Assembly (NCBI GenBank): GCA_050273025.1
Contig: CP158635.1
Location: 10,354,001-10,418,000, forward strand
Direction: 5' to 3'
DNA length: 64,000 nucleotides
Source: Cenococcum geophilum
Taxonomy: Eukaryota
Shown here: positions 5,244-53,900 of the stretch, piece after piece
Numbering within the stretch: position 1 is the stretch's first letter
Layout of the letters: each line of letters opens with the position of its first letter
Notes under the pieces: model-generated
Database searches by the model: none
Seen by the model: only the letters and a program-made list of their open reading frames with translations
What the model was told of the DNA's origin: nothing
Made by a program: the position numbers and the translations under genes

Positions 5244-5284
5244 TAAAGACTACTGACTTACTCCTTAGTGCTTATATTGTTTTC

Positions 5285-5939: not shown

Positions 5940-6040
5940 TAGTTATGGAGTGAGATAGAATGGAGCGAGATGGAATAGAGTAAGATGTGGAATTGGAATA
6001 AAGTGGAATAAAATGTAGTAGAATGTAGTGGAATGGCATA
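5940..6040. repeat. Degenerate (GGAAT/GAGAT)n pentamer tract
   Basis: atggagtgagatagaatggagcgagatggaatag...tggaattggaataaagtggaataaaatg. Confidence 0.6.
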
Positions 6041-10900: not shown

Positions 10901-11635
10901 TATAGTGGCGACACCTAGCACTAAATCACTTTAATTATCGTTACATATAAGCTGTAACTATACTTATATAGCTAACTACCTCCATATTCGCACTAGCACT
11001 ATAGTTATAAATTTTAGACCTGTTTTAGACGCTGCTACTATCCCTAAACGTAATATACTATCTACCTATCTAACCTTTACTCTTAATTTGCTAAACCAGC
11101 GATATCTAACATCGGCTTCTATAAAATGTATATCGACTTTACCGTTACATCTTAAGTAGTGTTAATTAACCGTATAAGAATACGTTAAAGAGGTTATATA
11201 AGGCCGAACGGCACTATAAAGTAGTATAAATGCACTTGGGCAGTGTTGAGGGCAGAGTAAGTAGTATAGTTAGGCATATGTGTGTGGGAGTAAGAGTAAT
11301 TGCTAAGGTTTTATCCACAACGTAGGGCGTAATAAGAGGATACAATAATGTATATATAAAAGCCTTTGTAGTGTATATGTAGCGCCAAGCATATTTCTTA
11401 GTAGAGAGGGGCTTATAATTTATCTGCGCCCTACTTTATTTAGCTTTAATACTTTCCTAGCTTATATTAGCGTTATGCGCATTATAGAGAATTAAGTGCT
11501 ATAGCGTTAAGGGCGTAGTAAGCGTCGAGTTTTAGAGGTATTGCTGTCTTAGCTAGGCCTTACCCCGCTAATAAATCCCGCACAGTCCGTAATTGTAAAC
11601 TTACTATAGTGTGATTTAATACTAATTGCTAGAAA

Positions 11636-14600
11636 ATGGCGTTTGTATAGGAACAAGCTCCTTCTTAAATTTATAATAACTTTATAGACGTATATATAGA
11701 GCTTAGCTATCTAATACTAATTCTCTAACAGCAATCCTAAAATTTAGGAGGTATATAACGCTATATAAAAAGAAGAATAACTACTAACAGTAGTCTGCTT
11801 ATTGGTGTAGATAGTAAGTTAACCTATTTAAAATAGACGAGATGCAATAACTGCTAATCGTAGTCTGCTTATTAGTGTAGAGAGTAAGTTAACCTATTTA
11901 AGATGGATGAGATGCGATAACTGCTGACCATAGTCTGCTTATTGGTGTAAAGAGTAAGTTGACCTATTTAAGATAGATAAGATGCGATAACTGCTAACTA
12001 TAGTCTGCTTGTTAATGTAGGATATAAGTTAACCTATTTAAGGTGGATAAGATGCGATAACTGCTAACTATAGCCTACTTATTGGTATAGAGAGTAAGTT
12101 AACCTATTTAAGATGGACGAGATATAATAACTGCTAACCGTAATCTACTTATTAGTATAGAGAGTAAGTTAACCTATTTAAGATAGATAAGATGCAATAA
12201 CTGCTAACCATAGTCTGCTTGTTGGTGTAGTTAATAAGTTAGCCTATTTAAGATGGATGAGATATAATAACTACTAACTATGGTCTACTTATTGGTGTAG
12301 AGAGTAAGTTAACCTATTTAAGATGGATGAGATGCGATAACTACTAACTGTGGTCTACTTGTTGGTGTAGTGGGTAAGTTAACCTATTTAAGATAGACAA
12401 GATGTAATAACTGTTGACCGTGGTCTACTTATTAGTATAGTTAGTAAGTTAACCTATTTAAGATAGATAAGATACAATAACTGCTAACTATGGCCCGCTT
12501 ATTGGTGTAGGATATAAGTTAACCTATTTAAGATGGATAAGATACAATAACTACTAACCGTGGTCTGCTTATTGGTATAGAGAGTAAGTTAACCTATTTA
12601 AGATGGATAAGATATAATAACTGCTAACCGTGGCCTACTTATTAGTATAGTTAGTAAGTTAACCTATTTAAAATGGATGAGATACAATAACTGCTAACTA
12701 TAGTCTGCTTATTAGTGTAAAGAGTAAGTTAACCTATTTAAGATAGATAAGATGCAATAACTGCTAACTATAGTCTACTTATTGGTGTAGAGAGTAAGTT
12801 AACCTATTTAAGATAGACGAGATACAATAACTGCTAACCGTGGTCTGCTTATTGGTGTAGTTAGTAAGTTAACCTATTTAAGATAGATAAGATGTAATAA
12901 CTGCTAACCGTGGTCTGCTTATTGGTGTAGACAGTAAGTTAACCTATTTAAGATAGATAAGATGCGATAACTACTAACCGTGGCCTGCTTATTGGTATAG
13001 AGAGTAAGTTAACCTATTTAAAATGGATAAGATACAATAACTGCTAACTATAACCTGCTTATTGGTATAGAGAGTAAGTTAACCTATTTAAGATAGACGA
13101 GATATAATAACTGCTGACCGTAACCTGCTTATTGGTGTAGGTGGTAAGTTAACCTATTTAAAATGGATAAGATGCAATAACTACTAACTATGGTCTGCTT
13201 ATTGGTGTAGTAGGTAAGTTGACCTATTTAAGATGGATAAGATACAATAACTACTGACCGTGGTCTGCTTATTAGTGTAGAGAGTAAGTTAGCCTATTTA
13301 AGATAGATGAGATGCAATAACTACTAACCGTGGTCTACTTATTAGTGTAGTGGGTAAGTTAACCTATTTAAGATAGACGAGATATAATAACTGCTAACCG
13401 TGGCCTGCTTATTAGTATAGAGAGTAAGTTAACCTATTTAAGATGGATAAGATGCAATAACTGCTAACTATGGTCTGCTTATTGGTGTAGTAGGTAAGTT
13501 GACCTATTTAAGATAGATGAGATGCGATAACTGCTGACTGTGGTTTACTTATTAGTGTAGAGAGTAAGTTAACCTATTTAAGATAGATAAGATATAATAA
13601 CTGCTAACTATAGTCTACTTATTAGTGTAGAGAGTAAGTACTTTCTTTTTAGGTCTTTAATTTCTTTACATATCATGTTGATTTAGGGCATGACTTTAGA
13701 TATCTTAGACGCCTTTTATTAACAATCAGTTTGCTATAAGGTTTTTTAGCAACTAGCCCTAAAGCACATCTTCTAAAAATCCCGTCTCTGCTTAATTGTG
13801 TTTATACTGCGTAGATCTTATATCTTTAGACCACCCTAAAAGTGCCTTTAAATTACGCACTCTAAGAAATAATTGTCTTCTCTATAACCTGCTCCTTAAT
13901 ATAGTCCGGTGTAATTATAGTGGAGATTATTAACAGGTTCCTATAATTAGAGATGATTTAGCCCTTATAGTTACTACAGATAGTCTATATATTATTCGCC
14001 TTTATGCCAATCTAGGTTTGTCTTTACCCTCTTTTAATATATTTAACTATGTCGCTTACTACTTTATATTGGTAAAAGAACCATTAATAGATGGTAGTTA
14101 CGGTATTGAAATTGGACCTCCTATTTTATAAACAATCAATCTCTTCCAAATTTGCAGTGCTTTATACTTCCAGTTACTATATAAATGGCTTTAGGAGTGT
14201 GACCAAAGTCATATATATAACCGGTAAACACAATACTAGCTAACAAGAGTCATTTTTATTAGAGGTCTAGATCCTAACAGATTGATACTTCAGGAGTAAG
14301 CGAGTGGAGAGGACTATTTTATGCTCTCGCACTACTAGGGTAATCTAACGGATAAGGAGAAGAAGCGGTTCTACACCACTCTAAAAAACTACCGTAATTA
14401 AATAAAGGAGGGATTCAGCTATAATGATTTACTAAAGACATTTTAAGATACGGTTTAAGTGACTCGAGAACTTAGTAAAGAGTACCTTTAGATTAATTCT
14501 CTTTGTATAATTTAAGGAAATAAGGAGGATTGGAAAAGAGAAGCTGGGCGCATAGAATAGGTCTTTACCTCTACCTACTATACCATTACCGCGAGTTCGG

Positions 14601-15624
14601 CGCCTAATTGGAGAGATGGCTTCCTTAAGCGGAACTTAAGTCCTTAGTATTTTTAGATCTAAAGTAGCTCCTATAGATAGGTTTATATCTATAATAACAC
14701 ACACGACTATAGTAAAGATATAGATGAAAGCCCCCTTAATAAGAGAGCTTGGGTACTATAAGAGCGAGTGCTGTCCTATAAAACTATCCATTTTTCTGTA
14801 AAATAGACGTATTGGGAGTGTGCGGAAGATATACTTTACAAAAACTTTATAAGGCTATAATGGTAAAGCTAAAGTTAAAGGTCATAGTAGAGTAATATAC
14901 TCTAATATTATATTCTAGCCCACCGGGAAGGGAACATTTTATTCTTAATTTTAATTTTCCTAAACGGCTTACGGCGTTAGGGTACGATTATACGGTTAAC
15001 TTTGTCCAAATTCTTTTTAAGAAGTATTTACAATGCGGTCTTACCAATAAATCCAATAGGGATACTGCGATCTTTAGCTTGGTCAAGCGCATAGAAAGTG
15101 CCTTAGACACTAAAGGAAAATACGGAGTATTTTACTGTTTTTTCTCTAAACTCCTTCTATAGAAATGGTTTAATAGGGAGAATATAGATCCGATTTTTTA
15201 CAATAGTCGAAGGGTGCCATCCTAGTCTTAGATGGCATATAATGGAGGAATTGATTTTATATCGGATTTGACACTTATAGTTCCGCGCTCTAAAGATCTC
15301 GGATTTGACACCAATCGAAAGGCGTTAGTCGTAAAAATTAGATAGTTTAAACATTGTCAAATAGAACAAGAAGAGAAAGAGCATGCTATTTTTGCTAATT
15401 TAGAAAGAGTGGGGTCTTTATAGTTTAATATGGCAACCAAAATTGAGTTTAGGCATTGTGTTGTCGTTAGGATGCGTAATAATCAGGAGGAAAACCCCCA
15501 GAAGACTTACTATATACTAGTTGTCCGAGAAAAACCACTAGAGAAGGAGTATAAAAGACTTAGAGTTGGGAAAGTTAAAGCACGCTATATATTAAAGGAG
15601 AGCGATACTAAAAAGCTTATGTAA
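11636..15624 (+). pseudogene. HET-domain (PF06985-type) gene with 5' tandem intron/microexon array, RIPed
   Basis: YFMLSHY*G, DLLKTF*D, EYL*INSLCII*GNKEDWKREAGRI, PLNKRAWVL*ERVLS at ~14315-14790. Upstream LCLYC...CLL(Y/C)NLLL exon. ORF 15430..15624 is the C-terminus. Start codon tentative. Confidence 0.85.
11751..13686 (+). repeat. Tandem array, period 70 bp: 67-nt GT-AG intron + 3-nt variable microexon (27 microexons)
   Basis: Unit is GTAAGTtaacctatttaagatggatgagatgcgataaCTGCTGACcgtggtctgcttgttggtgTAG + NNN. The triplets start at 11811, 11881 ... 13631. Confidence 0.85.
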
Positions 15625-16073
15625 ATTTGTTATTAGTTTATAAGTTAGTAGTTTTCTTACGAGATATAATATAAGAGTATAAATATTAACGCTCCTAGGT
15701 TGTTAGCTTTAGTAACCCTTAATTAAAACAATATAGAGCTCCTCCTTTACTAATATAAAATTGCTAGTTCTTATACTCCTTAAGTATAGGCAATAGGTAA
15801 GCTTTAATACCTAGTAAGTATTACTAGTTCTTTTTAACAGCGAATAGGGCTCGTATATACCGTTTAATAAAAAGTTACTTATTAAAAGGTTAAGTATATA
15901 GTTGGATATATAAACGGAATATCGTATTTAAGGATAGCGGCAGTATTTAAATAGGTCCTTAAATTTATAGAATAAGACTAGTGTAAATGCGGCGCTAGTT
16001 GGCTTTATAAGCATAGTTATAATTTATATATAACGGTAATTAAAGTAATCTAGAACTAGATGTCGCTGCTATA

Positions 16074-16520
16074 AGTAGGGAGGGCGGCTAACCTGTACCA
16101 GCTATACCCTTATTAAGAGTCTACTTCTTAGGATTAAAGAATAGAGGAAATAGGGGAACTATAGTTAGTGTTGGAATAAATGGTCTTAAGTGTGGTGTTA
16201 TAGCGGTAATACACTACCTCCGCTGCTCGGCGTTTGACTTGGCGCGGTTACTAAGTTAACTAAACTATACCAAAACCCCTAACCTATATCCTCGTCAACG
16301 GAGACATATTAAAGGTATAGGCGCTCCCATAGGCGGGTCTTCTATAGGGATTAGCACTAGCCCTATAACTAGGGCTTTTTAACCCTAGGGCTCTTAATTA
16401 CACCTACACTTTTAAATTTGGCGCCATTGACGTATTTTAAACTAACCCTTTTATTTATAGTCGTCGGAGTAGAGTTTCTTTAGGCTTCGCGAAGCTACCT
16501 TTAGGGGCGATCTTTTATAC
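16074..16520 (+). repeat. Module 1 arm B: inverted core site + ~410-bp conserved block ending in palindrome and ggggcgatctcttgtac
   Basis: Near-identical to 22444-22838 and 28357-28797. Confidence 0.9.
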
Positions 16521-17162
16521 CTAGAGGAACGTAGTTCTAAAAGGTATTTAGTGCCTAGAGGAACGTCAGTTCTAAAAGGGTTAAATACCGCCCGAGGAAA
16601 AATTGGGTTAGGCTCATCTTGCCCTCTTATTAGTCAAATCTTTTCGCCCTTATTGGCTAAATTTTCTCGCCGTCTTATCGGTTAAATCTTCTCGCCCTTT
16701 TATTTATTAAATTTTCTTACCCTCTTATTTGTTAAATCTTCTTCGCTCTTATTTATTAAATCTTCTTACGCTCTTATTTATCGAACCTTCTTACGCTCTT
16801 ATTTATCAAATCTTCTCGCCCTCTTATTCGTCAAATCTTCTCGCCCTCTTATCCGCCAAATCTTCTCGCCCTCTTATTTATTAAATTTTCTCGCCCCTTT
16901 ACTAGTTAGCTTTTTACCTCTTTAGGCTAATTAATATATTCTCTTTAGAATTTCTTCACACCGCTAGTATAGTCGGTTAGGAGGTATAGGTAGGAGAGGG
17001 GATTCTTAAGTATATTCGCTTATTAAGATCGGCTTATTATTTACTTAGGTGTAAATATCTTATCTCCTTTACAAAGTAGATTATAGCTTTAACCGCGCTA
17101 ATATTTAGGAAACGCTATAAAAACAAGGGTATAGCCTTAGCGGGTTAGCCGCCCTCCCTACT
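16520..17162 (+). repeat. Module 2 arm A
   Basis: Homologous to 10130-10900; 25-bp tandem variant aaatcttctcgccctcttat(n5); ends in core site 17125-17162. Confidence 0.9.
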
Positions 17163-17594
17163 AGCGCGGCTAGGTAAAGGTAAGGATAAGGATAAAGGCT
17201 TAGCAAAAGTAAGGGTAAAAGCAAAGGCGAAGGTGAAGACCTATAAGGGTATGGCTAGAGTAGATCGGCACCCTCCCTTCTAGTACAGCCAAAGTTATAG
17301 TAGCACCGCTTAATTTAACTTTTGGTACTAATAAATTCCGCCACTTAAAGCGCGTAGTTTAAGCTACTTAGAATATTATATAGAGTTAATATCCTTACTT
17401 AACAGAGCGACTTAATAGGTTAGCGCCAGCCTAACGCCTCTTACTAGCGTATTTCCCGCCTAAGGGGGAAACTTATGTTTATATAGGTATATATCCCCCT
17501 TAACCCTCTATAAAATAGAGATATAAAGAAAATAATATATATTATATAGAAGGCTATTATAACCTTACTACTACTCTATTATACTATATAAGCT

Positions 17595-20500
17595 TTAACC
17601 CTTCTTTAAATTGGAGAAATAATATACCCCCTAATAAGTGTCCTAATATAATTATTGCATTCTAAATAGCTATATAAGTTGCTTAATAGTTAGGAGGAAG
17701 CTAAAGAATATTCCCCCCCTTTTTCTCTACCTAATTGTTTAACACAAATAGAGTATATAACTGCTCTAAAGAATCTAGCAATGCCTTAAGAGAGGATATA
17801 TTTACTACTCCTCTATCCGTTTTAAGGTATTAACCTAAAGTGGAGAATAAAAGGTTATTAATAACTATACCAATCTTAAGCATCTACAGCGCCACTCCTA
17901 TAACGGCGTCCCAGAGCCTAACTATCTCGTCGCCTAAGCTTAACGCCACTAGCTTACCGTCTAGCAAGAAGGCCACTAACGTAACCGAATTTAAATAGCC
18001 CTTAAATATCTATAGTGTTGCTCCTATAACGGCGTCCTAAAGCCTAACTGTCTTATTATATAAGCTTAACGCTACTAGCTTACCGTTTAGTAAGAAGGCC
18101 ACTAATATAACCTAATCTAAATAGCCCTTAAACGTCTATAGCGCCGCTTCTATAATAGCGTCCTAGAGCCTAACTATCTTATTATGCGAGCTTGACGCTA
18201 CTAGCTTACCATCTAGTAAAAAGGCCACTAACATAACCCAATCTAAATAGCCCTTAAACGTCTATAGCGCCGCTCCTATAACGGCGTCCTAAAGCCTAAC
18301 TATCTCATTACCCAAGCTTAACGCCACTAGCTTACTATCCGGCGAAAAGGCCACTAACGTGACCAAATCTAAATAGCCCTTAAATGTCTATAGCGCCGCT
18401 CTTATAATAGCGTCCTAGAGCCTAACTGTCTTATTATACAAGCTTAATGCTACTAGCTTACCGTCTAGCGAGAAGGCCACTAACATAACCCAATTTAAAT
18501 AGCCCTTAAACGTCTATAGCGCCGCTCCTATAACGGCGTCCTAGAGCCTAACTGTCTTATTATACAAGCTTAACGCTACTAGCTTGCCGTCTAGCAAAAA
18601 GGCCACTAACGTAACTAAATCTAAATGGCCCTTAAACGTCTATAGCGCCGCTCCTATAACGGCGTCCTAAAGCCTAACTATCTTGTTATATAAGCTTAAT
18701 GCCACCAGCTTACCGTCTAGCAAAAAGGCCACTAACGTAACTAAATCTAAATAGCCCTTAAATATCTGCAGCGCCGCTCCTATAATAGCGTCCTAGAGCC
18801 TAACTATCTTATTATACGAGCTTAACGCCACTAGCTTGCCGTTTAGCAAAAAGGCCACTAACGTAACTAAATTTAAATGGCCCTTAAACGTCTATAGCGC
18901 CGCTCCTATAACAGCGTCCTAGAGCCTAACTATCTTATTATACAAGCTTAACGCCACCAGCTTGCCATCTGGCAAAAAGGCTACTAATGTAACTAAATCT
19001 AAATAGCCCTTAAACGTCTGCAGCGCCGCTCCTATAACGGCGTCTTAGAGCCTAACTGTCTTATTATATAAGCTTAACGCCACTAGCTTGCCGTTTAGCG
19101 AGAAGGCCACTAATATAACCTAATCTAAATGGCCCTTAAACGTCTGCAGCGCCGCTCCCGTAATGGCGTCCTAGAGCCTAACTGTCTTATTATACAAGCT
19201 TAACGCCACTAGCTTGCCGTCCGGCGAGAAGGCCACTAACGTAACCCAATTTAAATAGCCCTTAAATGTCTGTAGCGCTGCTCCCGTAACGGCGTCTTAG
19301 AGCCTAACTATCTTATTGCCCAAGCTTAACGCTACCAGCTTACTATTTAGCGAGAAGGCCACTAACGTAACCTAATCTAAATAGCCCTCAAGTGTCTGCA
19401 GCGCCGCGCTTTAATTTACTTACACTTTTGGCTTTATTTGGATCCAAGTAGGGATATACTTCTTAAATCGTCTTTAAACAATACTCTTCTCTAGGGCGAA
19501 GATAAGGGCTAAGCAATATAGCTAGAGGGGTGCCTATTTAATCACTAATCAATTATATAGAATAAATCGCTTCGTATTATAAACAAACGCGTATAGGTTA
19601 GGACTTTTATTAGCCTAGGTATAAATTAGTTAGGATTACCTAGTATACTCTAATAAAGACTTATTAGAATTTAAGCCTCCAAGAATAATATTATAAGAAT
19701 CCCTTTTAAAGTCTTCCCTATCTAGCTAAGGGCCTTAAGCTAGTGAAGTAAATGCTCCTATAGAAACCAATAAACTTAGTCGTTATTATAGAGTTAAGCA
19801 CTACCCCTTTAAAGATGCTGGACCTAGTATAGATATATATATTAAACTTCCGGAGGTATATACTGCTCTAATCGACTACTATTAACCCCTTAAGTAGATA
19901 AGCCTGGAGCGTAAACGCTATAGATATCTCTTCCTAGTTTGCTAGATATAAGCCGTATATAGTATTAGGCTAAGGCTTTATACTATTGTCTCTTATTTAC
20001 CTAAAGGGCTTAATTATAGCATCTCTGCTTATCTAGGAGGAAATCTTAAAACGAGGGATGTAATAGGCGAATAGGAGCTCCCTAGTCCTTTAGTATGTTA
20101 AGTACTAAATGTAAATACTATAATCTAGAATTAATTGACTCCAGGCGAATATTAAGCAGTTTAGTAAGAGCGGTAGCAAAAAGCGGTTCTAATAGGATGG
20201 AAAGAGACCCGATTACCTATCTAAATATCTTAGCTAGCTTATCCTTATTCCGTTGGCCTATAACATTCTTAAATAAGTGCTGTAAGATTTAAGTGTATAT
20301 CTCGTTAAGCTCCTATATTGGCAATGTGTATAGAATATCGTGCTTCTAGTCGTGATAACGGTCTAACCCATTACTAGGAAGGAAGAGGTGGAGAAGATCT
20401 TACGGTAACTATTGGTCGTCGCCCTTTATAAAGCGATATACTGTTACGGCATAGATAAACAAGCTTTTAGCTCTCTGGATTAGAAGATTAATCTTCTTAT

Positions 20501-21471
20501 TACTAGGCCAATTAGTAGCGATATTTTTAAAGTCATCCCTTATCTCCCGGAATTTCACCTTTAAGAAGACTGAAATATCCTAGTTGATAATAGCCTGGGG
20601 TATATTATAGAGGACCAAATTATAATATATAATCCTTGGTATAGCCTAGAAGCTAAGCCGAAGTGGTGTATCTAGTCTGCTAGTAATAAAGATATAAAGC
20701 CGAGTAGTATTATAACCGTTTAGCTCTATTAAAAGTTAAAGGATAGCTCTAATATTATTATCCCCCTTATACTCATCTAACGCATTAACTATAATAATAA
20801 ACGGTAACTGAGGCGGATTGGCCTTAAGCTTTAATATTAGCTAGAGGATAAGCTAAGTCCACTAGTCGCGGAGACCTTAATAGGCAATATCGCGGCATTT
20901 AGCAATAACTTTGCAGATATGGCCTTTGAGAGCCTCTAACTAATATGCTAGCTAGGAGGCAATGCTAGGGAAGAACTTTACAGCATAGCTAACATCTCCA
21001 CCACCTTTTAAGAAGAAGAAGCTTACTCCTAGTCGATTTTCCTCATAGTATTTGCGTGCGATTGTATAGGCGATAGTGGACTTTCCTATACCTGCTAAGC
21101 CGTTCAGCCAGAAGATATACCTTTCGTCTTATATATCTGCCTATGACGTTATCTATTATAGAACGCCGGTGCGCGTGTTAGGGAGGTATAGAGGGTTATA
21201 TTACTTATCGTAGGAGTTAAAGGGCGCTTACTTAGCAGAAGGCAATAGTAAAAAAAGGTCCTCTAAGGAGAGAATAAAGAGTTAATAGCTGTGTTGAGCT
21301 GTCTATATAGGAATATATGCTCTACAATAATAGGTCGTCGTAGATAGTTATAGTAGTATATGATGGAAACTCACCATCTCTGTAATTGATCCCCACAAAT
21401 ACATTTGCTCTATCTATAGCCAATATCCCGCTAATATGCTGGGATATATAATAGTTATTAGTTTAGCTTAT
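17595..21471 (-). pseudogene. NACHT-WD40 NLR-like gene (NWD/HET-E family architecture) with short N-terminal amyloid-like motif, RIPed
   Basis: P-loop IFWLNGLAG(I/T)GKSTIA at ~21070-21118. Walker B IIIVNALDEY at ~20770-20800. Also IFITSRL, LFI(Y)A and LHLFLP/HDFL motifs, then 12 WD40 repeats. The N-terminus is only ~35 aa before LPSA*APFNSY. Confidence 0.92.
17884..19406 (-). repeat. 12 highly similar 126-bp WD40 repeats
   Basis: De-RIP unit GAALQTFEGHSDxVxSVAFSPDGKLVASSSxDKTVRLWDAVT; starts spaced 126 bp apart. Confidence 0.92.
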
Positions 21472-21844
21472 TTCTAGAATTTATACTAGAGAACCCACAG
21501 CAATTGCCGCCAGCGATATAGTAGTTAGAAGACTTTCTAAATCTTATACAAGCCTTACGGTATAGGGGCTTAGGCTCTATATTAGGATCTTAGAGAGAAT
21601 AGCGATATATATCTGTAAGAAGTTATAGGTAAAACGCGAACGGAGGGGTGTTAAAGCTAAGCGCCGCTAAGAATATAGTATTAGCTACACTGTGAATATA
21701 ATCTTAAGCGCCCCTCTGTAAGGATTTACGCATTTGTCCACACAATTAATACCTATACTTATTATTAAAATTGTTTATTATTTATAATGGCTTATATCTC
21801 TACTAACTCTTTTATAGGAGATTACTAACTCTTTATATAGGAGA

Positions 21845-22060
21845 TTAATCGCTCTTACCTTTAAAGAACTTATTAATATCTATATTGTTTACTATTCTAA
21901 CTATCCCCCTACTACCTTGTCCAGCCGCCACTTACTTTATATCTTGCTTAATTCCGCCTTAATCTTCTATATTAAAAAATCCTACTAGTAGGTTATCTTT
22001 ATCTGCTGTTATATTCTCAATCCTCTACCTAGTCCGGTCGTAGTATATCTTTACCACTAT
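21845..22060 (-). pseudogene. Short ORF resembling a two-repeat HET-s-related amyloid prion-forming domain
   Basis: Translates (I/M)VVKIYYDRTR*RIENITADKDNLLVGFFNIED*GGIKQDIK*VAAGQGSRGIVRIVNNIDINKFFKGKSD*: two pseudo-repeats plus an aromatic C-terminal tail, like HELLF/HRAM-type PFDs. Confidence 0.65.
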
Positions 22061-22281
22061 ATCCCTATAATTATTTTATTATTTATAAAATAGATAAAGC
22101 TATAAGCTAGCAAATAAGGCTGCAATTTTATAGCGCCACTTTTTTTATCAACCGCGTAATAGGCTAGTGTCTTATTTTGCGCGGCAGTAAGTATAGGGTA
22201 AAAGGAGCTGTAGTTAGTGTCTTTACCCCTACTAGCGCTCCCGGCGCTTTCTTTAACTCGCTACTATAATAAGGTTACGCT

Positions 22282-22838
22282 AGTAGGGAGGGTGGACGAC
22301 CCGCTCTAGCCACACCTTTATTAAAGTCGCCTTAGCTAGCTAATAATTAGTTAATAAGTTATACGCTACTACCTAGCAATAACCCGAATATTCTATATAG
22401 CTATTTGCGATTAGATAAGCTAAGTCATTATCTTGCCAGCGCTAGCAGGGAGGGCGCTAACCTGCTTAGGCCACCCTCTTATTAAGGGTCTACTTCCTAA
22501 GATTAAAGAATAGAGGAAATAGGGGAACTGTAGTTAGTGTTAAAATAAACAATCTTAAGTATAGTGTTGTGGCGGTAATACACTGCCTCCGCTGCTCGGC
22601 GTTTGGCTTAGCGCGGTTGCTAAGTCAACTAAACTATACCAAAACCCCTAACCTATATCCTTATCAACGGATACATATTAAAGGTATAGGGCTTTTTAAC
22701 CCTAGGGCTCTTAGTCACACCTATACTTTTAAATTTAGCGCTATTGACGTATTTCAGACTAACCCTTTTATTTATAGTCGTCGGAGCAAAGTTCCTTTAG
22801 GCTTCGCGAAGCTACCTCTAGGGGCGATCTCTTGTACC
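22282..22838 (+). repeat. Module 2 right end: core site, 123-bp mini-spacer, second core site, arm B
   Basis: Core sites at 22282-22319 and 22444-22480. Arm B is homologous to 16074-16520 with a ~50-bp internal deletion. Confidence 0.88.
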
Positions 22839-23414
22839 GCGCAAGAAAACTTTAGTAGCCACTCGTCTTGCCCTTTTATTAGCCAAATCTTTCACCCTCT
22901 TATTAGTTAAATCTTTAAGCCCTCTTATCAGTTAAATTTTCTTACCCTCTTATCTATTAAATCTTCAAGCCCTCCTATTAGTCAAATCTTTAAGCCCTCT
23001 TATTTATTAAATCTTTAAGCCCTCTTATTTATTAAATATTTAAGCCCCCCCTACTTATTAGATCTTTAAGCCCTCTCATTTATTAAATCTTTAAGCCCTC
23101 TTATTTATCAGATCTTTAAGCCCTCTTATTTATTAAATCTTTAAGCCCTCTTATTAGTTAGCTTTTTACCTCTTTAGGCTAATTAACATATTCTCTTCGG
23201 AATTTCTTTACGCCGCTAGTATAGTCGGTTAGGAGGTATAGGTAGGAGAGAGGATCCTTAAGTATATTTACTTATTAAGATTGGCTTATTATTCGCTTAG
23301 GTATAAACGTCCTATCTTATTTATAAAGTAGATTATAGCTTTAACCGCGCTAATGTTTAGGAAACGCCACAAAAACAAGGGTATAGCTAGTGCGGGCCGG
23401 CCGCCCTCCCTACT
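22835..23414 (+). repeat. Module 3 arm A
   Basis: Homologous to 10271-10900; core site 23377-23414. Confidence 0.9.
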
Positions 23415-23719
23415 AGCGCAGGCAGTATGCGGATAATTTAGGTTTAATTAGCTAGACAAAAATATTACTAATTATACTACAGTTAAATAGGGCTAAAGGG
23501 AGCTCGGAATACGTAGCTTAAATATAGCTCCGCAGTCTAGAGCATAATTATAGTTACTTACGTTATATAAGGTACGGGGTAGAAATCACCTCCTAGCTTA
23601 TTATCGTAGATTGTATAATCTAACTCAAAACAATAGGCCGCAGGTATACCCAGTCTTATTATCTAACAGTAATTAAAGCTTTTTATACTAAAACAGATGC
23701 TCGACTTTCAACCCTTAAA

Positions 23720-26700
23720 TTATCTTCGAAGTTAGAATATTATCAGGCTCTTAACCTTATCTAAAAGTTCTAGTTCACTAGTAAACCAGTATAGTCTAGC
23801 TTTACCTATTACCTAAAAACCCCCTATAACTAATTATAGGATAACATAGCTGTCGCATCCGAAGACCTTATAGAGTCTGTCTCCTTTTTAACTTTAAGGG
23901 TGCACCCATCCAAGTTCTCCAGTCTAAACGGTCGCGATACGCATACTACTTAATATCGTTATAACCAGAAAGCGCAAATAATTGTCTTACCCTATATTCC
24001 GATCTGTTTTCATTAGCTAAGAAGTCTAGATACTATCCTAAAAATCCATTATCTCCCCAAAGGCAATAAATGACCGATTTACATCAATCCATTCTAACAG
24101 CACCTTAAGTACATTCAGTTTCACAGGCCTAAGAAAGAACTTCTCAAGTTCGGTCTTGTCATTGAAGCTTTAAAGCCCTATAAGATCTGGCGGAAGCTCT
24201 ACGGTTGTTACCAATAGCCTTTAAGTTTTAAGTAGAGTGTTAAATATATAGGTCAAGCGGTTAAAATCGAACGGCACTAAATATGCTCCTTTTCCCGTAG
24301 TTACAACATGCGTCATAACATCGTTCCCGTTAGCAGAAAATGCACTACCTATACTATTAATAGTTCCGAGAATAGCGCTACGGACGGTAAGCGTATTTTT
24401 AAAGAAGCTCGGCTTATCCGTTTACTTAAGAAGGAACCTTAATAAACCCCATTAAATAGGCGCCTAAATCTACTTAAACTCTTACTCTACTAAGGCATTA
24501 TTTAGATCCCTCTAGTCAACCACCTATAAAGGCAGAGAGTTATATAGCCCTTAGCGTAAAGTCCAAAGGTATATTAAGTCGAGTAGGAAACCTTTCTCAA
24601 TTAAAGCTTTTAAGAAATCTATATAGGTTTCCTCAACTAATTAGCTATAGTTTGGTTTAGGGATAAATACGTCACTATTATATATAAGTCCCAGAAGCCC
24701 ATATATCTTATCTTTTAGGTCCATTAACAACGCATAGCAACTGCGGTATAATGCCTCTAGTAATTCAACAGGCTTTATAGCAAGTCTATTAATTCGAAAC
24801 TAAAGTAAGTTCTAAAACCTCGCTTTTAACTCATCACTATTAGTCCTGTTAATACCTACCGTAAAAATAGGGCGCAAAAAATGTTCAAGAGTCTCCTATA
24901 AAAGCTTATAATAACCACAGAATATAGTAATCCTTAATACTGCGGCAAGCTCTTAGATAATCCATACTCGTGTCTAGTACGGTTTTAAGAGTAACTAGAG
25001 GAAAGCACACTAAGCCAAACCCGACTGGACTTAGTAAGCCATAGCAGTATACTTAGCAGACAGAGTTTTAATATCCTCTTTTATTATATCTTATACATCG
25101 CCTAACCAAACAGCCACTTAGTTTGCTTTTTAGAATATTGCGCCCATTCTTCTAACCTAATAACTTCTTTCTTTGTCGTCCTCCTAATTAATATAAAGAG
25201 CATCCACCTAGACACGCTCCACTCTTTCTACTCTTAATCGCCTTAGAGCTAAATAAAGGTTCGCAGTCACAGGGAATCTAAGGTCATTTACAGTGAGGCT
25301 GACTTTATTAGTCAGTTCGCCCTAGTAATATAATAGGGCCGCAAACGGCGGAGCTTTAAATAGAGATATATGGTCAAGCAAACATAATAAGGGCGATATA
25401 TTCTTATCTAACGGGTGTATAGTTAGAAGCCGGATCTATTTAGCTACTTAGTTAAGGTTCTGTCCCTATAGTTGGATAGATAGATATTAGAATTCTTCCC
25501 ACTTAGAGGACGATATAGGTTAGTAGCTGGGTGTTTAGTTCTAGGCTAGATCTATTAAAGAGCCTTAGTTAGCCAATTATCCTCTTTTACCATTACGGTT
25601 TACTTACTCACTATATCCATTAAGTAGCCTTAGTTAGCTAGTCATCCTCTTCTACCATTACGGTTTACTTACAAACTATATCCATTAAAGAGCCTTAGTT
25701 AGCTAGTTATCCTCTTCTACTATTACGGTTTGCTTACAAACTATATCTATTAAAGAGCCTTAGTTAGCCAGTTATCCTCTTCTACTATTACGGTTTACTT
25801 ACTTCCTATATCTATTAAAGAGCCTTAATTAGCCAGTTATCCTCTTCTACTATTACGGTTTACTTACAAACTATATCCATTAAGGAGCCTTAGTTAGCCA
25901 ATCATCCTCTTCTACTATTATAGTTTACTTATAGGCTATATCTATTAAGGAGCCTTAGTTAGCCAGTTATCCTCTTCTACTATTACAGTTCACTTATAAG
26001 CTATATCTATTAAGGAGCCTTAGTTAGCTAGTTATCCTCTTCTACTATTATAGTTTACTTACTTCCTATATCCATTAAGGAGCCTTAGTTAGCTAGTTAT
26101 CCTCTTCTACTATTACGGTTTACTTATAAACTATATCTATTAAGGAACCTTAGTTAGCTAGTTATCCTCTTCTACTATTATAGTTTACTTACTTCCTATA
26201 TCTATTAAGGAGCCTTAGTTAGCCAGTTATCCTCTTCTACTATTATAGTTTACTTATAGGCTATATCCATTAAGGAGCCTTAGTTAGCCAGTTATTATCT
26301 TTTACTATTATAGTTTACTTACAGGCTATATCTATAAAGGAGCCTTAGTTAGCCAGTTATCCTCTTCTACTATTACAGCTTACTTACAAGCTATATCCAT
26401 TAAGGAGCCTTAGTTAGCTAGTTATCCTCTTCTACTATTACAGTTTACTTACTTCCTATATCCATTAAAGAGCCTTAATTAGCCAGTCATCCTCTTCTAC
26501 TATTATAGTTCACTTACAAACTATATCCATTAAAGAGCCTTAGTTAGCCAGTTATCCTCTTTTACTATTACGGTTTACTTACAAACTATATCCATTAAGG
26601 AGCCTTAATTAGCCAATCATCCTCTTCTACTATTATGGTTTACTTATAGGCTATATCTATTAAGGAGCCTTAGTTAGCCAGTTATCCTCTTCTACCATTA

Positions 26701-27920
26701 CAATTCACTTATAAGCTATATCTATTAAGGAACCTTAGTTAGCTAGTTACCCTCTTTTACTATTACGGTTTACTTACTTCCTATATCCATTAAGGAGCCT
26801 TAGTTAGCTAGTTATCCACTTCTACTATTATAGTTTACTTATAGGCTATATCCATCAAGGAGCCTTAATTAGCCAGTCATTCTCTTCTACTATTATAGTT
26901 TACTTACATCCTATATCCATTAAGGAGCCTTAGTTAGCCAGTTATCCTCTTCTACCATTATAGTTTACTTACAAGCTATATCCATTAAGGAGCCTTAGTT
27001 AGCTAGTTATCCTCTTCTATTATTACAGTTTACTTACTTCCTATATCCATTAAAGAGCCTTAATTAGCCAGTTATCCTCTTCTACCATTATAGTTTACTT
27101 ATAAGCTATATCCATTAAGAAGCCTTAGTTAGCCAGTTATCCTCTTCTACTATTACGGTTTACTTACAGGCTATATTTATAAAGGAGCCTTAGTTAGCCA
27201 GTTATCCTCTTCTACTATTACAGTTTACTTACAGGCTATATCTATTAAGGAGCCTTAGTTAGCCAGTTATCCTCTTCTACTATTACAGTTTACTTATAGG
27301 CTATATCTATAAAGGAGCCTTAGTTAGCCAGTTATCCTCTTTTACTATTACGGTTTACTTACAGGCTATATCCATAAAGGAGCCTTAGTTAGCCAGTTAT
27401 TCTCTTCTACCATTATAGTTTACTTACAGGCTATATCTATTAAAGAGCCTTAGTTAGCTAGTTATCCTCTTCTATTATTACGGTTTACTTACTTCCTATA
27501 TCCATAAAAGAGCCTTAGTTAGCCAGTTATCCTCTTCTACTATTACAGTTTACTTACAGGCTATATCCATTAAGGAGCCTTAATTAGCCAGTTATCCTCT
27601 TCTACTATCACAGTTTACTTACTTCCTATATCTATTAAGGAGCCTTAGTTAGCCAGTTATCCTCTTCTACTATTACAGTTCACTTACTTCCTATATCCAT
27701 AAAGGAGCCTTAGTTAGCCAGTTATCCCCTTTTACTATTACAGTTTACTTACTTCCTATATCCATCAAGGAGCTTTAGTTAGCCACTTACTGCCTATATT
27801 TATTAAGGAGCCTTAGCAAGTTATCCTCCCCCTACGGTTTATATACCATCTAGATTATAAAATTATCCTTTTAGCTATTTAACAGTACCTCTAAGGTCCT
27901 AGCTTTCTTACCTTTAACTT
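23720..27920 (-). pseudogene. HET-6-like HET-domain gene with 5' tandem intron/microexon array, RIPed
   Basis: IRLLTIHP, FAALLYY*G, VTANLYLALRRLR, VDALYIN*EDDKERSY*VRRMGAIF*KAN*VAVWLG, PY*TRVWII*ELA and DPKDKIYGLLGL motifs at ~24690-25435. Start tentative. Confidence 0.87.
25546..27846 (-). repeat. Tandem array, period 65 bp: 62-nt GT-AG intron + 3-nt variable microexon (34 regular microexons + 1 preceding a shortened intron)
   Basis: Minus-strand unit is GTAAGTgaaccgtaatggtagaagaggatgactgGCTAACtaaggctccttgatggataTAG + NNN. Triplets lie at + positions 25608, 25673 ... 27753, and 27791. Confidence 0.85.
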
Positions 27921-28195
27921 ATATATAGCTTCCTATACGGCCGTTCCGTCTCAATAGTATATATTATTCAGTTAACCAAAATAAGCTCTTACTAGCCGTA
28001 CGGCCTTACAATCCTAGGAGGTGATTTCTACCCCACACCTTATATAACGTAAGCAACTATAATTATACTCTAGACTGCAAAGCTATATTTAAGCCACGTA
28101 TTCCGAGCTCCCTTTAGCCCCATTTAACTGCAGTATAATTAGCGACATTTTTATCTAGCTGATTTAACCCAAATTATCCGCATACTGCCTACGCT

Positions 28196-28797
28196 AGTAG
28201 GGAGGGCGACTAGCCCGCACCAGCTATACCCTTATTAAAGTCGCCTTAGCTAGCTAATAATTAGTTAATAAGTTGCACGCTGCTACCTAGCGATAACCCG
28301 AATTTCTATACAGTCATTTGCGATTAAACTAGCTTCGTTATTATCTTACTAGCGCTAGCAGGGAGGGCGCCGACCTACTCAGGCTACCCTTTTTATTAAG
28401 GGTTTACTTCCTAGGATTAAAGAATAGAGGAAATAGGAACTGTGGTTAGTGTTAAAATAAACGGTCTTAAGTATAGTATTATAGCAGTAATGCACTACCT
28501 CCGCTGCTCGGCGTTTGGCTTGGCGCAGTTACTAAGTTAACTAAACCGTGCCAAAACCCCTAACCTATATCCTCGTTAACGGATACACATCAAACAGGCG
28601 CTCCCATAGGCGGGTCTTCCATAGGGATTAGCACTAACCCTATAACCAGGGCTTTTCAACCCTAGGGCTCTTAATCACACCTATACTTTTAAATTTAGCG
28701 CCATTAACGTATTTTAAACCAACCCTTTTATTTATAGTCATTAGAGCAGAGTTCTTCCAGGCTTCGCGAAGCCACCTCTAGGGGCGATCTCTTATAC
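28196..28797 (+). repeat. Module 3 right end: core site, 123-bp mini-spacer, second core site, arm B
   Basis: Core sites at 28196-28233 and 28357-28392; spacer homologous to 22320-22443; ends ggcttcgcgaagccacctctaggggcgatctcttatac. Confidence 0.88.
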
Positions 28798-31799: not shown

Positions 31800-34265
31800 T
31801 AATTAACAATAGCAATCATTAGGCGCTCGCCCTTATTTATTTCTACCATTTCTAAGAAACTAGAGATCCCATTATCCCTCTAATGCTTTTAGGTTATCCT
31901 ATACTGCCCAGAGTATCTTCTTCATATTAAAGTACAGCCTTAAATTTAGATCCCTCCATCTCCCACCATTAGGGAACACCTTCCTCCATAATTTATTAAC
32001 GTAAGGGATTAATTATTAGTAATATAGCGTAAAGTTTACCTCTACGGTCTTAAGAAAATCTCTTTTATTATCTATAATACTTTTTTTAGAACCGGCCAGC
32101 TTTCTATCGCTCTTATAGTTCTAACACTTAAACTTAGTTAGCCTAATGTCTTTACTCGGGCCATTATAGTGAATGTAGATCTAGAATAGTACCCAGAAGA
32201 ATAACTCAAGATCGTGTATAAAAGAATGCTTTTTATTATCTAGAAGTACCCTAATTGCTATAAACGCTTATATGCTAGTCTTCCCCCGCGCTCCTAAAGG
32301 TCCTTCCCGCTACTTTTTAATTGCAAGATTAAAGTCAATTAAGAATGCCGGCTAAGAAGGATTATCATCTTCCTTATTCATTATTAGGTTGCCTGTTAAA
32401 ACGTTATATTAGATAATGCCGGCCCGCATATATAAAGACTCATATCCTTTAATATAACCCTCTAGTATAGTAAGTATTACAGCCCAAGAGCTTACCTTAT
32501 AAAGAGGCTTTCTATAGTCCCTAGTAATAACGCGTTAATATACGCGATTTTATATAATAGGGCGCTTAATCGGAGAGCTCAAATATATACGCTTGCTAGG
32601 CGGTAATAGGACATTAGTATAGCTAGAAGATCTCTTTCTGCTAATACTTCGGCCCTTTCTTATACTAATTTTCACTCTAGCCGGTCTTAGAGGCATTATT
32701 AAGTCTTCTAGCTTGTAGTTTATCGCTCTTATAATATCTAGCCCCTTACGGACGTTATTGTAAATGTTATCTTCTTTACCGCCTATATAAACTATCTCGT
32801 GGTAATAGTACCTGGCCATATTAACTACTTCTTTCTCCGTTACCTTACACAGTAGTTTACCTTCTTCCTCACGCTATAGGTACTGCCACGAGTCTTTAAT
32901 AACAAGGGGTATCTTAGAGGTATCCCCCTTACGGTATACTTTCTAGTAAGTAGTCGCTCGACCAGCAATATAGCGTGCCCGCTTTATAGGTTTATTAAGG
33001 ATAAGACACTTAGTCTGATTATTGCGCATAACCTCAATATATCGCTTACCGTCCGATGTTATTATGGTAGGGTTAAACCCAAGTTGCTCCTTATTTATCT
33101 AGAGAAATCCTAACATTACTAAGGTAAATTATAGTCCGTCTTTATTAATATTGAATAGTAATAATACGATGCCTCCTACCTAGTTATACTCCTATAGCCG
33201 CATAATAGATCTATAAAGGGTAAAGTTTAGGATAAAGCGACGAGTGTCCTAAGCGGCGAAGACTTCTCTTACGTATTTCCCTAAATCGAACCTTGCCTTT
33301 AAGGCTATATTAGTGTTTAGATTACTCTTTAGCTCTCCTAGCATAAGTATATACAATTAATAGCATTAGGAGCTTTCGCCAGCTATTAAATCGTCCATAA
33401 AGCCAATATCCAGCTTTTAGTCGGCCGTAGATCCTTATAAGGGCTACTGAGTATACTCTACTAGTCTTTATTATGCTTTTAGAATGAACCTATGCTCCTT
33501 TACAAAGTCTAGAAATAATATAATTAGCTTATTGAACCACTTTAGGACTCCACGTTCTTTTACGCCTTTAGGCCAGTTACGCTAACCGCCCTTCTCGGTG
33601 TATAGTAGATTATCCCCTTTTTTGCATTTCTTAAAAATAGTGGCGCTTACCGCCTTAAGACCTTCTACTTCTCTAAAGAATGCTTTATATAAGCTAGGAA
33701 TCCTAACGTAAAGGGGGCCTAGCTCCTCCTTTAAAATATAATCCACGTATTTCCTGTATTTAGACAAGTTAGTAAAGCTGCTTATATTGCGTAGATGCGG
33801 GGTTTAAACGTGGAGTGGCAGCGGTCAGGGGGGGGTATAGACTCTATTATAACGGCATAGACCTTTTCCCAAATAACCTCGTTAGGTTAAATCCGAAAGA
33901 TCGCATTTAGAAAAGGCAGGAACTGTTCAATATCGAAGTTATTAAAGATAACTGCTGAATTAAGTCTTAACAGATCACTAAGGAGGATTTTATTGCCGCT
34001 GTTAGATGGTAATAAACGAGAAGCGAGAAGGCTCTGCAGAACTAGTATTAGATTAAGCAAAATATCCTTTAGTTCTGCAAGTGTTAGATGGAAACTTATA
34101 ACAGGTACATTAGTAATTACCTTCGTCACCTATCTAGTATAACGACTTTAAAGAGCTAGAGATATCTAGATCCTAATAAGCCAAGTTAAATAAATTGCGA
34201 AAGTTATTTAGTCCTTCTCCGATAGGTTTCGTTTTAATTATCTCTAATTAGAAGAGATTCGCTAT
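31800..34265 (-). pseudogene. Fungal-specific FunK1-type kinase gene, RIPed
   Basis: FVLNFTLYRSIMRL*EYN*VG, VIKDSWQY, AGII*YNVLTGNLIMN...FLIDFNLA, GARGKTS..FIAIRVL and HSFIHDLELFFWVLF*I motifs. ORFs 32550, 33582 and 33887 are fragments. Confidence 0.88.
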
Positions 34266-35899
34266 TGCGGGTGAACGCGCCAAGAGCTACGTTGGGAGGG
34301 CCGACGTAGCAGGCGGGTAGGCAAATGAGGAGAGGAGATAGCAAAGAAGTAAATAAGTGCAGGGAGGTCGAGGACACGTCGGTGGTGTCTTGAAATAAGG
34401 ATATGATGAGGAAGAAAAGTGTGAGGAAGGAAGCAAGGTGCGAGCGGAACGCGAGGATTGAAGATTGGGCGCGGAAAAGTCAAGCCGATCCGACGTGGCT
34501 CAGACTGAGGCTTAGCGGGGCTTAGTTAAACGCTGAGCCACGATAACCCAAAGTGCGGGACACCGTTTGTAGTCTCTGGTCGTATAGGCTAAAAATGCAG
34601 TACGTATATGGGATTCTAGTATTATTAGAAAGCTATAGGCAGCATTTATTAGTCTATAACTAATCGCAAATTATCGGCTTTAATTTGTTCCGCGACGCGT
34701 AAGGCTTAAATAGAACGAGGCTCCAATACAGCGATGCGCTAGGCAAGGTACAGCTGACGACAGCGGGTTAATTATTGGGTTGGTCGTGCAAGCGCCCACG
34801 ATTAATTATATAGCTAGTTCTAAAACAAGCTAAACCTAATATTCCAAATACAGATATAGCCAACCCCATTTTACAACACTTAATCGACCTATTTCCTATA
34901 ACTGGGATCTAGTTCTTAGAACCGGAACCTTTTTCAGGATAGCGCCCTTTTTATAACAGTTAATTGGCCTACTTCGTAAACCCGAATTAGGATCTTAGTT
35001 TTAGAATCAGATTCTGTTCCTAAAATCGTAACTTAAGCCAGAACTGAAAATAGCTCCTCTCTTCCAAGAGCATTAAACCGCTTGGCTTAACGCTATACCT
35101 TTTTAATCACGTTTGGTACGTTTAGCTTAAAATTAGGATATGGTCTTTAGAATTAGGATACAGTCTTTAGAATCGGATCCAGTTCTTAAAATAAGATTCT
35201 ATTTTCGGAGTTATAACTTAGGCCAATATTAAAACAGATATCCTATATTTATTCTCAACATTCCCACCTCATTAATATAAAATTTAGAGTTAACCCACAC
35301 CCTAGTTACCCACAAAAACGCTAGAGAGCTTTATCTTAGGTACCTTAGCCGCTTTTCTAAGGAATTTATAGCGTTGCATAGCCCACTCTCTTACCACAGC
35401 CCCACTTATATAAACTCCTAAGCTAATTACTAGCGTGCACTAACTCCTGCAGACTCCTAAGCCAATAGAACGTCGCGCTACCCCCTAGACCCCTACACCC
35501 CCCCAAATTCCTCTACAAAGCGTCTAAGAGATTATAGGCGCGTATTTGCTGTAAGCTAGGCCAGATTTCCAATATATATTAACTTTAAGCAACTATAACA
35601 AGGTCAATATAGCAGCTACAACTACAGTTCGCGATACAATTAAATTGCAACCTCCTCTATTAGTATATTTTAATTAATATAGCTAGCTAACCACTATATT
35701 AAGGGTCGAAGTATAGCCTTAAAGTTCAAAAATGCGTTTTTTAAAGCCAGGCCGACCCAACCAGCCTCATCGATACAGCGACCATACTCCATCACTACAC
35801 CTCTATTCACCCTAAAACTTTATAAGGTACCTCTTATACCCTATTACAAACAGCTTACCTAATTATACTATACCTATACTAGTAGGTATGGATTTGCTT

Positions 35900-36830
35900 T
35901 GCAGTAGGGGGGAAGCTTTAGGTAGAGGCTCGTGCAGAGCTTTCGTAGAGCTTTAGTAGAGCTTTATATAGAGCTTTATATAAAGCTTTATATAGAGCTT
36001 TATATAGAGTTTTGTGTAGAGCTTTGTATAGAGCTTTATATAAAGCTTTATACAGAGCTTCGTGCAAAGCTTTATATAGAGCTTTGTGTAAAGCTTCGTA
36101 TAGAGCTTTATATAGAGCTTTATATAGAGCCTTATACAGAGCTATATATAGGCGTATAGACGTATAGATTGCAGATATGCGGACGTGTAGACATTTATAT
36201 AGGCGTTCGTGTGGGTAACTAATTAATTAATTAATTGTATGGACGTTTATAAAGCCGTTCATACAGGCGTTTAGTTAGTTAATTATATAGACGTTTATAG
36301 AGCCATTTATATAGACGATTATAGAGACTTCCTAGTATATTAGTGCTGCGTATTAGGAGAGTTTTAGAGCTCCGTATTAAGCTTTGAGTAGAGCTTTTAG
36401 TAGAGCTTTAAGTAGAGCTTTAAGCAGAGCCTTAAGTAGAGCTTTTAAGCAGAGCTTTTAAGCAAAGCTCCGTGCAGAGCCTTAAGTAGAGCTTTAAGTA
36501 GAGCGTCGTGTAGAGCTTTAAGTAAAGCGTTATATAGAGCTTCGAGCAGAGCTTTAATAGAGCTTTAAGTAGAGCGTTGTATAGAGCTTTAAGTAGAGCT
36601 TTAAGCAGAGCTTTAAATAGAGCTTCAAGCGGAGTAAAGCTTTAAGTAGAGAGCTTCCCTATATAGACCTTGTATTTAGGCTTGTTTTTAAAGGCCTTAT
36701 AAACGGCTTTATATAGAGCTTTATAGAGCTTTATATAGGCGTTTGTGTAGGCGTTCGTGTAGGCGTTTATATAGGTTTATAGGGACGTTTATAGGGACGT
36801 TTATAGGGGTATTAGGGGCACGGCTAGGCT
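35900..36830. repeat. Low-complexity 11-12-bp tandem repeats (agagctttatat / agagctttaagt)
   Basis: Visible tandem periodicity; may be a degraded repetitive minus-strand ORF beginning MEPSRAP at ~36834. Confidence 0.75.
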
Positions 36831-36991
36831 CCATTACGAATGCAATATATAGAGTAGGAGATAAGCTTTTAAATGGAGGTATTGGCGAGCTGAGAAGCGC
36901 TATATTAGGGGTCGAAGTACGACGTCAAAGGCGATACAACTGTCGTCCACTAGTGAGGCTGTACAGCCCTTATAAAACGCGCCCATAATCT

Positions 36992-37172
36992 CTTAGACCC
37001 TTAGAGAGGAATTCACCTCAGCGCCCTATAATTGGCTGCTAAAGCTAGCGCAAGCACTAACGCCTGCGGCATATATTAGCTACGGCGCCAGTCGCTAATT
37101 GGCTTAGATATGGCGGTGCCAGCCGCTTATTGGCTCAGGAGGTAAGGTAGATTTTCTCTCTAAGGGTCTAAG
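36992..37172. mobile_element. MITE-like element with ~27-bp terminal inverted repeats
   Basis: cttagacccttagagaggaattcacct ... aggtagattttctctctaagggtctaag; no coding capacity. Confidence 0.6.
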
Positions 37173-53748: not shown

Positions 53749-53900
53749 TAATTATACCTAATTAATCTGTTTATATCTTTTCGTAGTAAAGCCCCTAATA
53801 GCTTCTTATTATTTTATAGTTTAGCCTTTTAACTTAGAGTATCTACTTATATATTATCTATACCCTTAGTATACTAAATCTTAAAATAGTATTCTATAAG

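Follow-up and report, generated by a model that had tools for sequence, protein, structure and literature searches.

The stretch analyzed here, called the window, comprises 64,000 nucleotides of Cenococcum geophilum DNA (contig CP158635.1, positions 10,354,001 to 10,418,000, forward strand) and contains three gene modules of a common plan. In each of them a cargo gene lies between two inverted copies of a 43-bp core, which reads as the terminal inverted repeat (TIR) of a Tc1-type cassette, and outside the cores lie arms that resemble the ends of a Helitron2 transposon. The left arm of module 1 (10131-10861, plus strand) is a Helitron2-like 5′ end with starts of the TGCCT type at 10131, 10183, 10218 and 10236, 25-bp tandem repeats and an inner part of ~150 bp that is a fragment of a long interspersed nuclear element (LINE). 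The left core of cassette 1 follows at 10862-10904 (+) and belongs to an inverted repeat whose left copy, made of the core and ~145 bp beyond it (10860-11048, +), is 76% identical to the right copy (15927-16114, -), which ends in the core at 16070-16112. Between them are a 70-bp tandem array (11776-13639, +) and, downstream of it, cargo 1, a gene with a HET domain (14315-14764, +, E 1.8e-13) broken by repeat-induced point mutation (RIP). A spacer composed of the right arm of module 1 and the left arm of module 2, head to tail (16113-17123, +), leads to the left core of cassette 2 (17124-17166, +), after which a second, degenerate core is found at ~17244-17286. Cargo 2 is a RIP-broken NOD-like receptor (NLR) gene (17875-21125, -) with a NACHT domain (20676-21125, E 1.3e-17) and WD40 repeats (17875-19407, E 2.9e-34), and its cassette closes with the core at 22278-22320 (-). 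The next spacer (22321-23375, +) holds a 115-bp piece, a degenerate core (22439-22483), the right arm up to 22837 and the left arm of module 3. Module 3 has the longest repeat, with a left copy at 23374-23596 (+; core 23376-23418 plus 178 bp) and a right copy at 28014-28236 (-), ending in the core at 28192-28234; enclosed are the RIP-broken cargo 3 with its HET domain (24950-25342, -, E 3.1e-11) and a 65-bp tandem array (25545-27789, -). On its right side (28235-28795, +) the 115-bp piece, a degenerate core (28352-28394) and the right arm are found again, the latter with the 5′ start repeated subterminally in inverted form and a 3′ end of the CTCTTGT type.

The opposite gene orientations among the modules that a preliminary description of this DNA had reported are confirmed, with the HET gene of module 1 on the plus strand and the NACHT-WD40 gene of module 2 and the HET gene of module 3 on the minus strand. 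Only three open reading frames (ORFs) of at least 100 aa are present in the whole window and its genes are full of TAA and TAG stops, and the cassette copies in it are RIP-broken relics. From their sequence, both tandem arrays, which lie upstream of the HET genes, are predicted to consist of intron-like units of the form GTAAGT...CTAAC...AG parted by variable 3-nt exons, presumably resembling the codon-sized microexons of Tuber.

The window was compared with itself by BLAST and by position-by-position match counts. The reverse-complement pair of 220 bp described for module 3 (23377-23596 with 28014-28233) is real, with 199 of 220 positions identical, and BLAST stretches it to 223 bp (90.1%, E 1e-82); the 21 differences between the copies are 20 transitions and a single transversion, an excess of transitions that is expected from RIP. 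The pair of ~118 bp proposed for module 1 is also present (95/118), its length having been understated: the BLAST alignment covers 190 bp at 76.3% (E 5e-30). In module 2, 32 of 43 positions are identical between the cores, and the loose match claimed for ~25 bp past them did not hold up; just 9 of these 25 bases match, so that the module lacks an inner extension. The inner repeat sequence is different in each of the three modules.

A transposon on another contig of this genome gave the core its identity. The element at C1:8170890-8172269 (the genome is G000 below, C1 to C7 are its contigs, and loci numbered with L are metagenome stretches) is 1,380 bp long, is bounded by a perfect 46-bp TIR next to TA dinucleotides and carries a broken gene with DDE_3 and HTH_Tnp_Tc3_2 domains. 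The core matches the TIR of this transposase-coding Tc1 element at 33 of 43 positions, ungapped, and each cargo thus reads as a non-autonomous, gene-carrying element of the Tc1/mariner type with the core as its 43-bp TIR. Among the ends of a related MITE family (miniature inverted-repeat transposable elements), 43 of 44 are next to TA. Among complete cassettes, TA adjoins both ends in 5 of 29 pairs, of which one is RIP-altered and motif-flanked, and in 2 of 9 further true pairs, a count from which L189/L190 were removed as not being partners; a blunt insertion between T and A is indistinguishable by sequence from a TA duplication. At the junctions read, no direct repeat was found that would correspond to the 9-11 bp target duplication of Pack-MULEs. 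The idea of cargo captured as a TIR-bounded unit was borne out in part by the Tc1-type core and by arm-less, TA-flanked copies, and that of a special hairpin was not, since the core folds no better than shuffled sequence; an attC-like hairpin was likewise rejected (four folds, z 0.17-1.05). A reading of the core as a Helitron2 3′ end, whose outward-read tip resembles the arm end, was dropped after the Tc1 element was found. The preliminary description had further held that cargo occurring elsewhere without arms and with target duplications would indicate an ordinary Pack-type element. Such arm-less cassettes between TA do exist, which in part argues against a purely site-specific system; the lack of TA at most ends speaks against a plain Pack element. 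In viral contigs the core had no match and no transposase was found.

The arms are a separate, non-autonomous wrapper that resembles Helitron2. Their CTCTTGT-type terminus is one base off the published motif, and 33-45 bases from its end the right arm repeats the start in inverted form over 12 bp (13-16 bp, at 20-40 bp from the 3′ end, in published elements). An empty site, in which the flanks of the array are joined in its absence, was observed near C3:8036100; it has a DUF7025-AAA gene on one side and a fungal kinase gene on the other, and lies downstream of a DUF3435 captain that precedes the C3 cluster. Array copies are inserted at differing points of this region, with tandem joints of right arm to left arm and no target duplication. 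No RepHel gene was found between the arms in the window, and 150 Helitron_like_N matches occur elsewhere. A cargo-less joint of left and right arm gave no match to the exact pattern, a weak test in a RIP genome. The parts of the report on FoHeli3-5 of Fusarium oxysporum drawn on here (PMC5148889) describe a TGCCT start, a CTCCTGT end, an asymmetric TIR and sometimes several 5′ ends, and our arms share the start, a CTC(C/T)TGT end, the asymmetric TIR and the several 5′ termini. With FoHeli3-5 and with ToxB-HLE, a tandem Helitron2 wrapper according to the portion of its preprint cited here (bioRxiv 10.1101/2025.11.13.688278), they have in common head-to-tail copies, the lack of target duplication and gene cargo; the same portion of the Fusarium report gives the interiors of FoHeli4/5 as inverted relative to FoHeli3. 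Unlike these elements, the arms here are without RepHel and their interior is a separate, TIR-bounded and exchangeable cassette.

The cassette family extends well beyond the window. A near-exact core pattern had 113 matches in G000, the reversed control had none, and exact core matches were present in 105 metagenome stretches. In 116 core-like ends, one arm type is joined to 20 inner end types; conversely, the inner type of module 1 is carried by 34 of the 116, together with 20 outer types, and the first ~100 bases of the module 1 repeat therefore represent a common end family and not a cargo-specific sequence. The module 3 end family was found solely with cargo 3 relatives; its inner boundary is identical in the window, on C4 and in two ends from metagenomes. 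Hence the long repeats, put forward as cargo-specific, are end families that are so just in part: the inner sequences do differ by module and the module 3 type is limited to its cargo, while the module 1 type is widespread. Core variants in which CCC replaces GGG near the tip, a 5-bp micro-inversion, were seen at G000:C4:11264731, C4:12552702, C3:8026058, L260 and L280. About 29 RNA reads, matched on window positions 23392-23424, extend through a core at another locus, which means that transcription crosses some cores.

The genes enclosed are of host type (HET, NACHT-WD40, and TPR and ankyrin NLR genes) and come without a transposase of their own, those met within cargos being nested elements with their own TIRs. 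The immune genes are carried whole and measure 2-14 kb, and non-immune cargos (SBF, FMN reductase, zinc finger) also occur. The largest ORF clusters of the metagenome loci, whose domain scan took in 114 of 134 non-redundant ORFs, are found inward of the cores (17/18, 10/10, 5/5, 5/5 and 3/3) and are represented by TPR, HET, ankyrin, WD40 and HET proteins, and the multi-member types include TPR-NLR. On the outer side the ORFs are often housekeeping genes; genes for PD-(D/E)XK nucleases were also noticed there (L227:3588-5228 and L256:6443-7144).

Several loci document that cassettes and spacers have been inverted and their ends exchanged. On C5 a right-plus-left spacer of the type of 22321-23375 lies inverted between cores, with the result that one cargo has left arms on both sides and a copy of cargo 1 has right-type flanks on both sides. 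On C4 the other end of cargo 3 adjoins a flank of left-arm type, and the tip of its first core is joined to that of the preceding cassette. At G000:C4:18292127 and in L048, two cores meet at their tips with a few bases missing, like a signal joint after loss of a spacer. Both orientations of one cargo, which the preliminary description had suggested looking for, were found by comparing L251 with G000:C5:12067880-12072630, the one locus tested between genomes and the one flip: both junctions are shared, the right flank is 91% identical over 573 bp on the plus strand, and the HET cargo lies on the minus strand. The repeat at this flip is 46 bp only, and the left flank at the G000 locus differs from L251 by an insertion. 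L244, which has the appearance of a palindromic assembly artefact, was left out of the evidence for flips. A single variant of the core is found next to several different outer flanks, which places the exchange at the tip and not in the central 8 bp.

For the comparison of ends we used transversions, since these are blind to RIP. Among the eight ends of the cargo 3 family, three transversions are common solely to both ends of the C4 copy, and the left end of this copy carries right-type bases ~7 nt beyond the usual boundary, so the repeat grew there. The copy at C7:10535375, of the module 1 family, has two alike ends (3 transversions), of the right type, over a left-type interior. Conversion between the two ends of a cassette is thus seen in other copies and not in the pairs of the window. 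Inner repeats that reach at least 150 bp past the core occur in 6 of the 29 true pairs and in 7 of 250 pairings of random ends, and those of at least 100 bp in 8/29 vs 24/250; mirrored outer flanks of at least 50 bp are present in 6/29 vs 19/250 (the set of 29 omits some pairs, among them module 2, the C4 cargo 3 and a long palindrome on C6). Inner repeats measure 675 bp in other cassettes, where blocks of up to 2.3 kb also occur. The C6 cassette just mentioned (G000:C6:14701412-14709386) is a nearly full palindrome with a unique center of ~1.2 kb. To the inversion or gene conversion that had been proposed to homogenize the cargo ends, the L251 flip, the C5 spacer inversion and the private transversions of the C4 ends lend partial support, and a recent homogenization of the window's own pairs found none.

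The long inverted repeats are lengthened TIRs, and we consider it probable (roughly 0.68) that a trans-acting Tc1 transposase together with repair from a partner end explains the lengthened, flipped and swapped cassettes. Around the TIR homology, the flips, the converted copies and the empty site of the wrapper, which were observed, we infer the enzyme, the site of the cut and the path of repair. By analogy with Tc1 cleavage chemistry, a transposase supplied in trans would cut the TIR tips. The broken end would then be repaired on the other end of the cassette or on another cassette, and subterminal sequence would be copied inward over a variable distance, which would make or lengthen a repeat and overwrite old differences. 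A cut cassette or spacer might also be rejoined reversed or to another flank, as would be possible because all ends have the same tip, giving flips and many-to-many joins of arm and cargo with no new target duplication. RIP would afterwards add transitions, and the Helitron2-like wrapper would have copied the cassettes head to tail.

A number of observations weigh against this explanation. Most core ends, among them all six that bound the window's cassettes, are without TA (196 of 242: AA 104, CA 48, GA 34; 46 with TA), and 146 of the 196 carry one of a few shared outer motifs, for which a Tc1 origin does not account. No transposase-bearing element with the exact core TIR was found; the relatives are A, whose own TIR matches at 33/43, and a subfamily B, taken up below, in which no TIR was seen. 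No empty site with a single TA was seen for a TA-flanked cassette, the one locus tested being filled and flipped, and the flipped G000 copy has small deletions inside both cores and not at the tip. The ends of module 1 in the window differ by 13 transversions and each differs from its C5 paralogue by 0 and 1, respectively, and the similarity between the two module 3 ends (1 transversion) does not exceed that to their paralogues (0-1); moreover, 13 of 29 pairs have an extension of less than 50 bp. Finally, no strand-changing joint was detected over 19450-25500 in four runs (three of DNA, taken as contigs, and one of RNA, taken as reads), material that consists mostly of contigs and as such loses rare forms. 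These runs confirmed the assembly arrangement of the region, and 38 RNA reads that fit it only partly come from other copies.

A possible but more doubtful account dispenses with an element enzyme. The old TIRs would be short dispersed homologies, and ordinary repair of breaks, made by a LINE or otherwise, would produce the rearrangements; in its repair step this account overlaps with the transposase explanation. A 5.7-kb LINE with reverse transcriptase and endonuclease is indeed found on the outside of 61 of 194 core ends, at most 120 nt away, in 60 of them with its 5′ side toward the core and in 0 of 196 on the inside (~25 of the 61 descend from one arm fragment). In 14 of 26 cases the first base of its 12-bp duplication coincides with the TIR tip, so something acts there with single-base register. 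Examples of such tip-registered LINEs were noted in L280, L288, L225, L227 and G000:C1:8162300-8168120, and also beside the related MITEs. The deletions inside both cores of the flipped copy fit repair of this kind, but the L251 flip used repeats of 46 bp only and left both TA junctions exact, cassettes flanked by TA in unrelated surroundings require a transposase at some time, and the core is strongly conserved, as its near-exact copies document.

If an enzyme acts in trans, as the preferred explanation holds, the best candidate inferred from sequence is the Tc1 subfamily B, which a Tc1 protein search gave as a second subfamily with ~40% identity. PiggyBac, pogo, MULE and another Tc1 transposase near cores were set aside for having other TIRs or an outside position. 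At C7:526380 (a copy split by an insertion), C2:7657787 and L223 the B gene lies ~0.4-0.9 kb outside the tip and points away from it, and no terminal repeat was found around the B copy in L327. In L327, L328, L046 and L223 a subfamily B transposase lies outside core tips, with no TIR seen. A listed core lies no more than 30 kb away from eight of 22 B loci, against 4.1% of random places (p 1.5e-6), and two control Tc1 groups gave 3/36 and 1/42; this comparison used 100 loci grouped by identity from 127 rows, short or weak rows being left out, and 171 listed cores, an incomplete list. B forms one clade of 18 rows in a quick tree of 89 rows restricted to proteins of at least 280 aa (Shimodaira-Hasegawa-like approximate likelihood ratio test 100), the DD34E triad is intact in several of its rows and open frames, and close homologues (70-95%) are present in public assemblies, one of them named from Corynespora.

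These data could be taken further, to a dedicated shuffling in which the domesticated, TIR-less subfamily B flips and swaps immune cassettes at fixed landing pads, in the manner of an integron integrase or RAG, and selection keeps the arrangement. Such a role would fit the clustering of B near cores, its outward-pointing position, its single clade with an intact triad, the inner gene clusters of TPR-NLR, HET, ankyrin and WD40 type and the joining of one arm type to 20 end types. We regard it as unlikely: 14 of the 22 B loci are more than 30 kb from any listed core, no B gene lies in the window or in the preceding 20 kb, most G000 copies of B are RIP-broken, some cargos are not immune genes, and no flipping was seen in reads. 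The B loci may also not be independent, because their copies may have duplicated together inside larger elements.

Least probable by far is a tyrosine recombinase, such as a Starship captain, that would use the core like loxP and cross over within its central 8 bp, in the way of shufflons or the 2-micron plasmid: such a site would suit the imperfect palindrome that the core forms around 8 bp, and DUF3435 captains are abundant (165 matches), some near clusters (e.g., C3:7969165), but the sequence of the core is homologous to a Tc1 TIR, PF00589 gave no match, variants in the outer half of the core occur with several unrelated flanks (a small sample), its folding is no better than that of shuffles (z 0.4-0.7), and the nearest listed captains are ~360 kb before and ~490 kb after the window.

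Elsewhere in the window, at ~2600-9600 and 32000-35300, are broken genes of kinase, DUF7025-AAA-like and fungal-kinase-like type, which also flank other arrays and are typical cargo of large elements. A 1.5-kb element at 35506-37013 is bounded by 41-bp inverted ends, a TIR unrelated to the core, and holds 12-bp repeats inside, and direct repeats of 296 bp, 5.6 kb apart (53899-54194 and 59468-59763), are probably the long terminal repeats of a degraded retrotransposon.

How fungal NLR and HET repertoires are reshuffled quickly is an open question, for which the cassettes give a concrete route through a shared 43-bp end, flips and end swaps; they may be a fungal route for reshuffling immune genes. 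In its widest form, which we hold to be improbable, the proposal would be a fungal immune-gene cassette system in which Tc1 TIRs serve as universal recombination signals, a domesticated TIR-less transposase flips, swaps and re-pairs NLR and HET cassettes, and the arrays spread by way of Helitron wrappers and Starship-like elements. If true, fungi would possess a counterpart to integrons and to the RAG origin of V(D)J recombination, and the candidate enzyme is named and has intact relatives that can be assayed. The ordinary reading would still be a gene-carrying Tc1 family with a marked bias to immune genes, in Helitron2 wrappers and hit by a tip-registered LINE. No description of invertible TIR cassettes of fungal NLR or HET genes was found in full-text searches of an open-access library.

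Integrons, shufflons and RAG with its recombination signal sequences combine many cassettes, one shared end site, inversion and exchange. The cassettes are like them in outline, with a shared end site, inversion, exchange and a candidate enzyme gene outside the site; they differ in that no tyrosine recombinase was found, the enzyme is only a candidate, and there is no sign of programmed or somatic switching. Pack-type non-autonomous elements (Pack-MULE, Pack-TIR and Ant1 of Aspergillus niger) are bounded by TIRs, hold captured genes and have no transposase of their own. The cassettes resemble them in all these respects and in that some copies lie between TA, but differ in that about four fifths of the ends lack TA, the cargo is strongly skewed to NLR and HET genes, many ends are joined to few shared flanks, and flips occur in place. 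The closest parallel for the growth of the repeats is Galileo, a P superfamily element of Drosophila, for which the part of the report cited here (PMC3573991) describes TIRs that lengthen after a break by recruiting internal sequence and vary in length, chimeric copies with two unlike ends and no matching target duplications, and inversions between copies, all of them as seen here. Unlike Galileo, the cassettes have a Tc1-type TIR, whole host-type immune genes of 2-14 kb, Helitron wrappers and LINE targets. Their parts are therefore of known kinds: Pack-type TIR elements, TIR growth like that of Galileo, and Helitron2 wrappers, including the tandem ToxB-HLE.

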